From Patescibacteria group bacterium (lineage in GTDB: Bacteria > Patescibacteriota > Minisyncoccia > Phycocordibacterales > PALSA-1337): DNA of 45,570 nucleotides. Made by a program: the position numbers and the translations under genes. This document shows positions 5,292 through 30,693 of this stretch, one piece after another. Position 1 is the stretch's first letter. Every line of letters starts with the position of its first letter. The notes under the pieces were generated by a model that ran no database searches, was not told where the DNA came from, and saw only the letters and a list, made by a program, of their open reading frames with translations. The stretch is taken from positions 1 to 45,570 of the forward strand of contig JAZKBV010000003.1 of assembly GCA_040388415.1 (NCBI GenBank), in the 5' to 3' direction.

Positions 5292-5381
5292 TGGCGGAGA
5301 GAGTGGGATTCGAACCCACGGTTCCCGTAAGGGAACGGCGGTTTAGTAAACCGCTGCCTTAAACCACTCAGCCATCTCTCC
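5292..5381 (-). tRNA. tRNA-Ser with ACU anticodon
   Basis: GGAGAGA acceptor strand, GCGGT-TT ACT AA-ACCGC anticodon arm, long variable arm GTTCCC/GGGAAC, G73, encoded CCA. Confidence 0.93.
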
Positions 5382-5481: not shown

Positions 5482-5568
5482 GGAACCGTGGTGGAGTGGT
5501 CTAACATACCTCTTTGCTAAAGAGGCAGGCCTTAACGGGCCTCGAGGGTTCGAATCCCTCCGGTTCCG
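5482..5568 (+). tRNA. tRNA-Ser(GCU)
   Basis: GGAACCG/CGGTTCC acceptor stem, CCTCT-TT GCT AA-AGAGG, long variable arm, GAGGG-TTCGAAT-CCCTC, G73. Confidence 0.95.
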
Positions 5569-5598
5569 CAATGAACGAACGTAGTGAGTGAGTAAGTT

Positions 5599-28116: not shown

Positions 28117-28135
28117 GTTGTTGTACAATACCTCT

Positions 28136-28894
28136 ATGAAAATACTTCTTATTTTTGGAGCGATAGTCGCTGTGGTGGTTCTAGCATTTGCTCCTATTAT
28201 CCCCGTTAGTGTCGAAAAGTTACCTGAACACACTTTGTTCAACTTCCAGCGCGTCGGTGGCATTGCTGGTTTCAATGACAATATCTCTGTCGACTATGGT
28301 GGCAATGTCTTCAAGACAGACAGAAGTGTCGGTAAGCTCGATGATACACAACTCGCTGCACTCAATGCCTATATTTCAGATAAAAAATACACTGCAGACG
28401 TTACTTCGTTCATTGATTTGATAAAATCGAAAGTACAGAAACCAGAATCGTATCCAGATATGATGACTGTGTTGGTGCGCATCCAAAACGGCTCAAAGAC
28501 GGTCAAGGTGCTTCAAGATACATTTATCAACGACTTGGTCGCGCAACTCACTGAGCTGATTAACACCGGTCCGACGATCAGTGCAATTAATCCATCGAGT
28601 GCTCATATAGGAGATCGTGTCGAAATCGACGGAACACATTTTAGCGGTTTTGAAGGTGATAAGTACGCTTGGATGGAAAACTCGGCCACTGGCGTGAAAG
28701 GTATTATTTACAATGATGTCGGCTCGACTGATAGTTTGATCAAGTTCACGTTGAAAGATAAATACTGTACGGCAGATACATCCTACTCAGGAAAGTCGTG
28801 TCCGTCGTATCTGACTATCGTTCCTGGGGAGTATAACGTTTTTGTATACCCTTGGGGACGAATGAGTAACAAGATGAAGTTCATCGTCGAGTGA
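28136..28894 (+). CDS. secreted/anchored protein with a C-terminal IPT/TIG-like domain
   Basis: Hydrophobic N-terminus; PTISAINPSSAHIGDRVEIDGTHF...PGEYNVFV...SN. Confidence 0.75.
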   Translation: MKILLIFGAIVAVVVLAFAPIIPVSVEKLPEHTLFNFQRVGGIAGFNDNISVDYGGNVFKTDRSVGKLDDTQLAALNAYISDKKYTADVTSFIDLIKSKVQKPESYPDMMTVLVRIQNGSKTVKVLQDTFINDLVAQLTELINTGPTISAINPSSAHIGDRVEIDGTHFSGFEGDKYAWMENSATGVKGIIYNDVGSTDSLIKFTLKDKYCTADTSYSGKSCPSYLTIVPGEYNVFVYPWGRMSNKMKFIVE

Positions 28895-28952: not shown

Positions 28953-29228
28953 GCCGTTGTAGCTCAGTTGGTAGAGCACGCCATTGGTAGGTCGTAAGAC
29001 CCTGCCCACGTACTTGGTAACATATACGTGAATCCCGAATTACGGTTAAAGTCCTTTTGATTTCAAGAAGGATAAGACCGTGGCGTGAATCTTTTATTAT
29101 GTAGAAGATTTACGCCCGAACGACTGACAAGGGTTTCCATGCTTATGGAAAAAGATACAGTCTAGTCCTCCTGTAAAGAGAGGTGTAAACGAATGGCGAG
29201 GTCTCCGGTTCAATCCCGGACAACGGCT
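28953..29228 (+). tRNA. tRNA-Thr(GGU) interrupted by an intron (exons 28953-28988 and 29192-29228)
   Basis: Joined exons give a 73-nt cloverleaf: GCCGTTG/CAACGGC, CGCCA-TT GGT|AA-TGGCG, TCCGG-TTCAATC-CCGGA. Confidence 0.92.
28989..29191 (+). ncRNA. group I self-splicing intron, 203 nt, no internal ORF
   Basis: 5' exon ends in U paired to G in P1, intron ends in G; P4 TTACGGT/ACCGTGG, P7 GACTG/CAGTC within the S-like motif AAGATACAGTCTAG, P8 TTTCCAT/ATGGAAA, P9 with a GTAA loop. Confidence 0.9.
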
Positions 29229-29241
29229 CCCTTAAATATTT

Positions 29242-29270
29242 TTGACGATGTTTGGTAGATTGGATATACT
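29242..29270 (+). promoter_or_regulatory. promoter of the HNH gene (leaderless)
   Basis: TTGACG-N17-TATACT, with ATG 7 nt downstream. Confidence 0.7.
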
Positions 29271-29277
29271 CGACATC

Positions 29278-29733
29278 ATGCCAATGCCGAGGAAAAATAA
29301 AAATGTATGTCCAGTCTGTTCCACGATGCCAGAGCGTTCTAGGTATATGTATTGTAGCAATAAGTGCCAATTAGAATTTCAGCGTAGAAGATATATCGAG
29401 AAATGGAAATCGGGTGAGATAAGTGGCCTCAGTAATATTGGAACTGTGTCAGTAGTTGTAAAGGAATACTTGAGAAAGAAGTATGATAATAAGTGTGTAT
29501 TATGTGGGTGGTCGATAATGAACCTTAAAACTGGTATAGTTCCTTTGGTTGCAGATCATATTGATGGCAACTGGCGTAATAATGTTGAGAGTAATCTGAG
29601 GTTGCTCTGTCCCAACTGTGATTCTCTCACGCCAACATATGGAGGTTCCAATAAAGGATATGGGCGCGTTAATAGGGCAGTGAGCAAAAGAGTGTCAGAG
29701 GGACGTTTGTTATCAAGGGTCTTGCCAAATTAG
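29278..29733 (+). CDS. free-standing HNH endonuclease with an N-terminal Zn ribbon
   Basis: CPVC..CSNKC; CVLC..DHIDGNWRNN..NLRLLCPNCD; stop codon lies inside the next tRNA. Confidence 0.88.
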   Translation: MPMPRKNKNVCPVCSTMPERSRYMYCSNKCQLEFQRRRYIEKWKSGEISGLSNIGTVSVVVKEYLRKKYDNKCVLCGWSIMNLKTGIVPLVADHIDGNWRNNVESNLRLLCPNCDSLTPTYGGSNKGYGRVNRAVSKRVSEGRLLSRVLPN

Positions 29734-29794
29734 TTCAATGGTAGAACACTGCTTTCGTAAAGCAGGGATATGGGTCCGATTCCCGTATTTGGCT
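29724..29794 (+). tRNA. tRNA-Thr(CGU)
   Basis: GCCAAAT/ATTTGGC, CTGCT-TT CGT AA-AGCAG, T-loop TCCGATT. Confidence 0.9.
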
Positions 29795-29805
29795 CACTTA
29801 AATTT

Positions 29806-30693
29806 ATGAAGTCCGACAAAGACCAAATCCAACAAAAAATAACCGACCTCGAGACCGCAATGGCAGGTGCTGATTTCTGGCAGGATAAAAATAAAGCTCA
29901 ATCAGCCATCAAAGAGCTCCAAAATCTCAAAGACAGCCTCGAGGGTATAGGGAAGTATGATAAGGGCAATGCCATCCTCTCTATACTCTCTGGCGCAGGA
30001 GGCGATGATGCTGAAGATTTTTCAGCTATGCTTATGCGCATGTATCGTCGCTATGCTGAAGGTAAAGGATGGAGTTTCGGCATCATCCACTCAAATGAGA
30101 ACGATCACGGTGGCTATAGAAATATCACTATTGAAATAACTGGTAAGAATGTTTATGGCACCCTCAAAAATGAATCGGGTGTCCATCGTCTCGTGCGCAT
30201 CTCTCCCTTTAACTCTGCGCAAAAGCGTCAGACTTCTTTTTCGCTTGTCGAAGTCATCCCTGAATTTGAAAAGACTTCATCTGATGATGTGGTTGTTGAA
30301 GACAAAGATCTTGAAATATCGATCGCTAAGTCAGGCGGTCCAGGAGGTCAGAACGTGAACAAGCGCGAGACGGCCGTACGACTCCTCCATAAACCTACGG
30401 GCATATCTATCCATGTCACCTCTGAGCGTTCGCAGGCGCAGAACAAAGAAAAAGCTCTCGATATCCTCCGTGGCAAGCTCTGGAAACATATGGAAGATGC
30501 ACGCAAAGCAAAAGAGAAGGGTATGCAGATATCTTCGACCACTGCCATCGAGTGGGGTAACCAGATTCGCTCATATGTTTTGCATCCATATAAGATGATC
30601 AAGGATCACAGAACTGATGTCGAGACTTCTTCAGTGGATAAGGTGCTCGAGGGCGATATTGATATGTTTATTGAGGCAGAAAAGGAGCTGTAG
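29806..30693 (+). CDS. prfB: peptide chain release factor 2 (shortened domain 1, no frameshift)
   Basis: [27 protein letters not shown]; upstream of ftsEX; the ORF-track start at 29770 lies inside the tRNA. Confidence 0.93.

Follow-up and report, generated by a model that had tools for sequence, protein, structure and literature searches.

A family of free-standing, probably homing-type HNH endonuclease genes at tRNA-Thr loci of Patescibacteria, with a group I intron as linked neighbour

The window analysed here, a stretch of 45,570 nucleotides (nt) from a 782-kb genome of the Patescibacteria (Candidate Phyla Radiation, CPR), contains a small HNH endonuclease gene that is wedged between two tRNA-Thr genes, the first of which is interrupted by a group I intron. 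Comparison with related loci reveals that the family to which this HNH gene belongs is positionally locked to tRNA-Thr genes and not to the intron. It is reasonably likely that we are dealing with a free-standing homing-type endonuclease cassette that is aimed at tRNA-Thr loci by presumed cleavage and homing, and that the intron is a linked neighbour of this cassette.

The HNH gene family and its address

At E<=0.001, 1705 of 1715 candidates belong to the HNH family, which numbers more than 1705 proteins, and relatives occur in at least 591 species genomes. The genomic surroundings were compared at 80 related loci, which are those nearest to the protein of the window and not a random sample. 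A tRNA-Thr gene lies within about 330 nt in all 80 loci, and in 76 of them a tRNA-Thr with CGU or UGU anticodon follows directly downstream of the HNH gene. By motif count, this is tRNA-Thr(CGU) in 69 loci, with the HNH stop codon inside the tRNA in 38 and with the exact -10 register of the window in 25, and it is tRNA-Thr(UGU) in five loci that are all cyanobacterial; L066 and L077 were missed by the motif count, yet have a tRNA-Thr just downstream in other listings. Other arrangements are seen in L036 and L060, where tRNA-Thr(CGU) lies 58-67 nt upstream of the HNH gene, and in L068 and L073, where the HNH gene stands just after tRNA-Thr(UGU). The cyanobacterial and Chloroflexi relatives (L071-L080) likewise have their HNH genes beside tRNA-Thr, and relatives are present in 171 phage records: gp14 of the Streptomyces phage Jada starts about 30 nt after a trio of tRNA-Thr genes, the HNH gene of Cronobacter phage LPCS28 ends 1 nt before tRNA-Thr(UGU), and the "putative endonuclease" of the T5-like phage vB_EcoS_HdH2 overlaps a tRNA-Thr by 1 nt. 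At E<=1e-5, a search of the plasmid collection for relatives gave a single weak match, in Curtobacterium.

A second HNH subfamily, matching the profile with E-values of about 1e-40 to 1e-47, is found after tRNA-Thr(UGU) in all eight loci that were fetched (L085-L092), seven times on the same strand. It lies 40-90 nt after this tRNA in relatives from the genus and the order, and 16 further genus genomes have it as well. There is none in the window's genome, and some copies contain stop codons (G358, G012). As a separate observation, an open reading frame (ORF) that matches only the HNH core (L093; G019:C8:594-770, minus strand) abuts tRNA-Leu(UAA); docked HNH genes of this kind may therefore exist at tRNA genes other than tRNA-Thr as well.

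In the window, the locus is composed of the following features, all on the + strand:

28953-29228, +: tRNA-Thr(GGU), whole gene, found by direct reading and by ARAGORN with introns allowed, which reports tRNA-Thr(ggt) i(37,203)
28953..28988, +: 5' exon of tRNA-Thr(GGU), nt 1-36, with the anticodon GGU at its end (direct reading, ARAGORN, colinear with the intron-less allele of G005, the closest relative)
28989..29191, +: group I intron, ORF-less, 203 nt, between tRNA positions 36 and 37 (homologue alignment, covariation)
29192..29228, +: 3' exon of tRNA-Thr(GGU) (direct reading, ARAGORN, comparison with G005)
29242..29270, +: promoter-like TTGACG-N17-TATACT of leaderless type (best site in the region; spacing to the ATG conserved in the family)
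29278..29733, +: HNH endonuclease gene, 151 amino acids (aa), family start ATG at 29278 (profile, alignment and fold matches)
29724..29795, +: tRNA-Thr(CGU), unusual allele with GTTC/GAAC D-stem and short D-loop (ARAGORN; Rfam tRNA 65.6 bits)
29806..30693, +: prfB (release factor 2), which in the genus is conserved to the right of the locus (Pfam PCRF and RF-1; synteny in 30 genus loci)

The mechanical ORF listing starts the HNH gene at a TTG at 29242 (163 aa), and we used the family start ATG instead. A gap of 49 nt separates the end of tRNA-Thr(GGU) at 29228 from this ATG, and at the other end the last three HNH codons and the stop fall within tRNA-Thr(CGU), the stop TAG at 29731-29733 being nt 8-10 of the tRNA. 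The genome contains one tRNA-Thr gene each for UGU, CGU and GGU according to ARAGORN with introns allowed; without the intron option, the program misses the interrupted tRNA-Thr(GGU). An earlier interpretation of the window, which we call the sequence-only reading, had described the intron, the HNH gene, the 49-nt gap, the promoter, the TAG overlap and a terminal CPNCD motif, and all of these were found again where it had placed them.

The HNH protein, whose gene is present in a single copy in the genome, has an N-terminal Cys4 zinc ribbon, followed by a CxxC...DH...N...N...CPNCD core. An alignment of 20 diverse members shows no variation at C73/C76, D93-H94, N98/N102/N106, C111/C114 and D115. 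This set of residues is that of the beta-beta-alpha-metal core of HNH / His-Me finger nucleases, with its general-base His after an Asp, a structural Asn, a last metal ligand (H, N or D) and, in many cases, two CxxC zinc pairs around it. The best PHROGs match is the HNH family PHROG 1271 (E 2.5e-17) and the best PADLOC model is "HEase", i.e. homing endonuclease (E 1.2e-11), with weak profile matches to ZorE-type defence HNH proteins besides. The AlphaFold model has a mean pLDDT (predicted local distance difference test score) of 76, and its top Foldseek matches in the PDB are all HNH nucleases (ScoMcrA with probability 0.99). I-HmuI (PDB 1u3e) is the sole solved structure that was matched by sequence, weakly and over the DH...N...N core (E 0.33). 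By spacing, the terminal Asp of the family occupies the position of the metal-binding Asn of I-HmuI. Because of this spacing and the invariance of the Asp in all 20 members, CPNCD in place of CPNCH, to which the sequence-only reading had drawn attention, is to be regarded as a family trait and not as a defect. The proposal that the gene is free-standing and of homing-endonuclease type agrees with the best PADLOC and PHROGs matches, and the protein is a predicted nuclease.

With 10 of 12 positions matched, TTGACG-N17-TATACT is the top promoter-like site between 27400 and 30400. There is no excess of such sites in that region (9 versus 6.0 +/- 2.3 by chance), and the promoter assignment carries weight because the site is conserved across the family and not because of the site count. 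Between the end of the -10 element and the HNH ATG there are 7 nt, a layout conserved across 58 start-anchored family loci, which have a TATAnT box at -12 to -7 (T in 37/58 at -12, A in 41/58 at -11, T in 44/58 at -7) and a TTGA box at -36 to -32. As the -35 and -10 elements keep a conserved spacing to the start codon, the transcript is predicted to start at or beside the ATG, and the leaderless promoter of the sequence-only reading thereby turns out to be a conserved, if still predicted, part of the cassette. About half of the 58 anchored loci, belonging to other lineages (e.g. L044, L012, L064, L019), have a conserved inverted repeat of the approximate form CGACCA-N14-18-TGGTCG with varying inner pairs, which surrounds the -35 box at roughly -50 to -20 relative to the start codon. 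This repeat could be an operator or a hairpin; the window and its genus have it in degenerate form or not at all. The conserved MPMP start codons were also considered as a duplicated tRNA acceptor stem, an idea that was dropped as only 7 nt are alike and nothing beyond them is tRNA-like.

Could the gene be an inert relic, that is, a decaying former homing endonuclease gene from which no active protein is made? The replacement of the canonical last His by Asp, the Pfam HNH scores below their cut-offs and the existence of broken copies elsewhere (G232, G358, G012) would fit such a scenario. However, the Asp is invariant as described, the reading frame is intact, the promoter is conserved, and the ratio of nonsynonymous to synonymous substitution rates (dN/dS) between the window's genome (G000) and G375 is 0.065, which is purifying selection. 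We consider the chance that the gene is a relic to be very small.

The group I intron and its relation to the HNH gene

Several sequence comparisons agree that a true group I intron is present at 28989-29191. With Rfam Intron_gpI, the insert scores no more than 21.7 bits (E 0.0014, 301 nt searched), under the gathering score of 50, and the Rfam group I seed contains no bacterial introns (Williams 2020, bioRxiv 10.1101/2020.01.27.920355). Eighteen homologous inserts at the identical tRNA position, some of them from the genus and others from distant Patescibacteria, can be aligned with it and share extended core blocks without variation, and RNAalifold on tRNA plus intron of 19 sequences predicts 65 pairs, 38 of them with compensatory changes. 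In P1, exon nucleotides G34-G35-U36 pair with the internal guide, the U36.G wobble being invariant in the 19 sequences, and the terminal nucleotide of the intron is a G (29191). The intron-less tRNA-Thr(GGU) of G005 is colinear with the two exons of the window, and the joint 28988|29192 is present, as in intron-less alleles, in DNA contigs of other organisms from three metagenome runs (X2, X21, X7). Since the interrupted gene is the only tRNA-Thr(GGU) of the genome and the sole reader of ACC and ACU, the insert must presumably be spliced out. An apparent anticodon mimic in the P2 loop was dropped, because the loop is better read as a GNRA tetraloop that caps P2.

Like the group I introns of other bacterial tRNAs, this intron is about 200 nt long and ORF-less, interrupts the anticodon loop behind a U whose partner in P1 is a G, has a terminal G and possesses a conserved core. 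In bacterial tRNAs, the anticodon-loop settings comprise the classical IC3 types in tRNA-Leu, tRNA-fMet, tRNA-Arg and tRNA-Ile2 plus 17 newer ones, by which the known tRNA settings were raised from 4 to 21 (10.1101/2020.01.27.920355). That tRNAs of the CPR can contain group I introns has been noted before (PMC8172020). The ORF-less tRNA-Thr(GGU) intron is a separate element that is widespread in Patescibacteria.

How closely is the HNH gene tied to this intron? The sequence-only reading had proposed a strict collaborative homing, in which the HNH nuclease cuts intron-less tRNA-Thr(GGU) at or near position 36/37, and in which the intron protects the host allele and is mobilised by the neighbouring nuclease. 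This is an established phage mechanism (PMC3984707), and the vicinity of a nuclease gene at only 49 nt from an ORF-less intron speaks for it. A regular co-occurrence of the two elements would be expected from it, but the HNH gene proved to be largely independent of the intron. The intron is nearby in 12 of the 80 HNH loci and absent from 68, and 13 of the 80 have an uninterrupted tRNA-Thr(GGU) beside the HNH gene. Where the intron-bearing tRNA is 600-1100 nt off (L006, L007, L041) or on the other strand (L048), the HNH gene still abuts tRNA-Thr(CGU), and the cyanobacterial, Chloroflexi and phage relatives abut tRNA-Thr without this intron.

The two elements are also often found apart among 93 genomes of the window's genus, six of which have a strong HNH match and 20 the intron. 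Both elements are present, and then always adjacent, in five genomes (G000, G375, G017, G369, G390), while G344 has only the HNH gene, located after tRNA-Thr(CGU). The HNH gene is absent from 15 of the 20 intron-bearing genomes; in some of these, merely 5-8 nt separate the intron-bearing gene from tRNA-Thr(CGU), and no remnant is seen. A tblastn search of the intron-bearing, HNH-less genus loci for HNH remnants (E<=0.01) found none, and the spacer to tRNA-Thr(CGU) is 5-128 nt long or occupied by unrelated genes. Two such genes stand between the intron-bearing tRNA-Thr(GGU) and tRNA-Thr(CGU) in G389 (L131:376-926) and G340 (L133:386-1005), and by eye one is NUDIX-like and the other P-loop kinase-like; the spacer between the two tRNA genes seems to be an insertion hot spot.

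There are nevertheless observations that speak for a connection. All five genus carriers in which the HNH gene lies upstream of tRNA-Thr(CGU) have the intron directly upstream, versus 15 of 88 other genomes (Fisher p 0.0003, with kin that are not independent). In a phylum-wide sample, a detectably similar intron occurs in 17 of 301 genomes, G000 included, and hence in 16 of 300 other whole genomes, to be compared at the same BLAST cut with the 12 of 80 HNH loci; the two elements are therefore enriched together, yet each is mostly found without the other. Moreover, truncated tRNA copies that are described below break in or near the anticodon loop, which hints at a cut site in the region that the intron interrupts, but these copies are of CGU type and not of GGU type. 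Of the collaborative homing proposal, the free-standing homing-type HNH gene, its patchy occurrence and its enrichment with the intron within the genus have stood, and the dependence on the intron has not, as the family tracks tRNA-Thr. In its strict form, we regard the proposal as quite improbable. Neither the HNH gene nor the intron depends on the other, and the tie between them is loose and not obligatory.

Distribution, tRNA alleles and the possible mode of spread

At the syntenic locus Met-Met-Asp-Thr(GGU)-Thr(CGU)-prfB of the genus, all four presence states of HNH gene and intron occur. Close relatives differ here in whether the HNH gene is present at this one locus, a polymorphism that is typical of free-standing homing endonuclease genes. 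In the 301 phylum genomes, the search detected two intact HNH copies and one broken copy (G232, with five stops). The prfB tree, built from 36 genomes, has the HNH carriers so scattered that six changes are needed, at least two of which are forced by strongly supported branches, and three of the six carriers have supported non-carriers as sisters (G000/G005 with 94/98, G375/G359 with 100/100 and G369/G398 with 96/91). The closest relative, G005, whose prfB is 90% identical, has tRNA-Thr(GGU), a 14-nt spacer, tRNA-Thr(CGU) and prfB, with neither intron nor HNH gene. The suggestion that the gene would be hard to delete, made because of its overlap with the tRNA and because its promoter might drive the downstream tRNA and prfB, is contradicted by this locus. 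The distribution of the gene is patchy (6 of 93 genus genomes), and it is under purifying selection (the above-mentioned dN/dS).

The tRNA-Thr(CGU) that adjoins the HNH gene may have travelled with it. The window's copy is 64-79% identical to 27 of the 28 HNH-less alleles of its own genus and 90% identical to that of G005, while with 8 of 72 alleles that are linked to an HNH gene in other lineages it shares 82-86% identity. G375 carries this unusual tRNA-Thr(CGU) allele too, and its prfB sister G359 a canonical one. A non-canonical D-stem is found in about 45% of the HNH-linked alleles versus 2 of 19 HNH-less genus alleles. The allele thus appears to follow the HNH gene rather than the genus, as far as short markers and a control from the genus alone can tell.

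Furthermore, a truncated 5' half of a tRNA-Thr is present about 89 nt before the HNH start in five loci (L003:2412-2500; L019:2412-2500 and 2947-2997; L028:2411-2500; L049:2431-2500; L051:2409-2500), L019 having its second truncated half at the 3' end of the HNH gene, and weaker halves are visible by eye in L014, L022 and L027. The remnant of L051 comprises nt 1-38 with the CGT anticodon intact. Each remnant differs in its allele from the intact tRNA-Thr(CGU) downstream, and the breaks are in or near the anticodon loop; the window itself has no such remnant. These halves look like scars of invasions that would have broken a resident tRNA-Thr(CGU) near its anticodon loop and supplied a replacement. 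A conserved motif upstream of the cassette was also considered as a remnant of a tRNA T-loop, which was provisionally set aside because L051 has an intact anticodon loop at that place.

Taken as a unit, the proposed cassette would be made up of three parts: its own sigma-70-type promoter, placed so that the mRNA would be leaderless, the ORF of 151 aa, and the tRNA-Thr(CGU) next to it, in whose first ten nucleotides the last HNH codons and the stop are contained. Cleavage by RNase P at the 5' end of this tRNA would be expected to remove these codons and the stop from the nuclease mRNA. By analogy to SegB of phage T4, genomes without the cassette would be cut by the enzyme in a tRNA-Thr gene or immediately beside it; a repair templated by a copy with the cassette would then transfer both the nuclease gene and its tRNA allele. 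The intron, at 49-90 nt from the HNH gene, could be kept or moved along by linkage or co-conversion, possibly as a hitch-hiker.

A more far-reaching version of this idea is that the element replaces tRNA genes: the nuclease would cut tRNA-Thr near the anticodon loop and bring a resistant tRNA-Thr(CGU) that restores the function which the enzyme destroys, the truncated 5' halves upstream would be the scars of the invasion, and the intron at 36/37 of the adjacent tRNA-Thr(GGU) would escape the cut and ride in the conversion tract, so that nuclease, tRNA and intron would form one cooperative mobile module. As the HNH stop lies inside the tRNA, processing of a co-transcript by RNase P would generate a non-stop HNH mRNA and keep the nuclease level low. 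We think of this extended version as a tentative and, on the whole, unlikely one.

Alternatively, the gene might be a domesticated or accessory host gene, either a defence nuclease or a factor that acts on tRNA-Thr or its precursor, which is kept beside tRNA-Thr by co-transcription. The low dN/dS together with saturated synonymous sites within the genus implies a long residence, the own promoter and the tRNA overlap are both conserved, the weak ZorE-type matches would fit a role in defence, and the N-terminal zinc ribbon could bind nucleic acid. But the gene was found in so few genus genomes, and in two intact copies and a broken one in the phylum sample, that its function is not a core one. 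It is also small and stands alone, without partner genes, and its best PADLOC model is a homing endonuclease. Defence would also not explain a constant tRNA-Thr address over three phyla and several phage groups. Such a host function is rather unlikely in our opinion.

Several points have to be set against the homing cassette. The 80 loci represent the nearest relatives and not a random sample. The Pfam models remain under their cut-offs (HNH_3 with 18 bits versus 24.8, HNH with 10.6 versus 21.4), and the best Foldseek E-value is 2.1e-3, with none reaching 0.001. The intron occurs in five of the six HNH genomes versus 15 of the 87 others in the genus (Fisher p 0.0015, kin again not being independent), an association that is stronger than simple independence predicts. 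The tRNA alleles were compared over 72-nt sequences, with HNH-less controls drawn from the genus only. Finally, synonymous sites are saturated between most genus carriers, and a recent transfer is therefore not demonstrated; for the genus pattern, vertical descent with many losses fits about as well as old transfers.

Some further observations were made in the vicinity of the cassette and elsewhere in the window. Between tRNA-Asp and tRNA-Thr(GGU) lies a 258-aa ORF with a weak IPT/TIG match (28118-28894, +), and as G005 has only about 100 nt at this place, the tRNA cluster contains here a further insertion that varies between relatives. The prfB match is in two pieces (about residues 1-129 and 101-295, with varying boundaries) that are 6-80 nt apart in G367, G345 and G371, which could be due to a frameshift site, an insertion or an assembly error; the prfB of the window is one uninterrupted frame. 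ARAGORN also calls a tRNA-Ser with anticodon ACT (5292-5381, -) divergent from tRNA-Ser(GCT) (5482-5569, +), and as a serine tRNA with A34 would be unusual, this call may be a miscall or a pseudogene.

Comparison with known systems

One HNH family with one tRNA-Thr address extends from ultra-small bacteria, in their hundreds, to some cyanobacteria and Chloroflexi and to several groups of phages. Provided that its members are active, the family would amount to a naturally occurring collection of nucleases directed against a gene that is universally conserved. It could also open a way for tRNA alleles, and for gene-less introns beside them, to pass between lineages that are otherwise hard to study, which would also bear on the spread of ORF-less tRNA introns. 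In a few phages, free-standing homing endonuclease genes are known to occur amid the tRNA genes. The HNH genes of the phages HdH2, LPCS28 and Jada are true relatives of the window's gene, with 34-43% identity over 77-98% of the query and the same tRNA-Thr address, but they are phage-borne and have no intron neighbour. More distant is hegA of phage BF23, F-TflIV, which matches only the HNH core and is located after tRNA-Ile; its activity is site-specific according to its GenBank annotation and the T5 literature. I-HmuI differs in that its gene lies within an intron, and in that the protein has a long tail for DNA binding and none of the CxxC zinc pairs. In the known cases of collaborative homing, the nuclease target is the intron insertion site and both elements are found together, whereas here the nuclease mostly occurs without the intron and the intron mostly without the nuclease.

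In titles, abstracts and passages of the literature, we found no description of a tRNA-Thr-linked HNH family in Patescibacteria. Among the closest known systems is SegB, which PMC2330249 and PMC2988022 describe as a free-standing homing endonuclease that belongs to the GIY-YIG superfamily, in the tRNA gene cluster of phage T4. Its recognition site is based on a conserved motif of the tRNA T-loop, and through co-conversion it carries nearby tRNA genes along when its own gene spreads (PMC2330249). Both systems share a free-standing nuclease gene that is wedged between tRNA genes. SegB is a phage gene with a relaxed specificity for many tRNA genes, whereas the family described here, which is so far known from its sequences, is of the HNH type and cellular, stays with tRNA-Thr only, and has an ORF that ends inside the tRNA.

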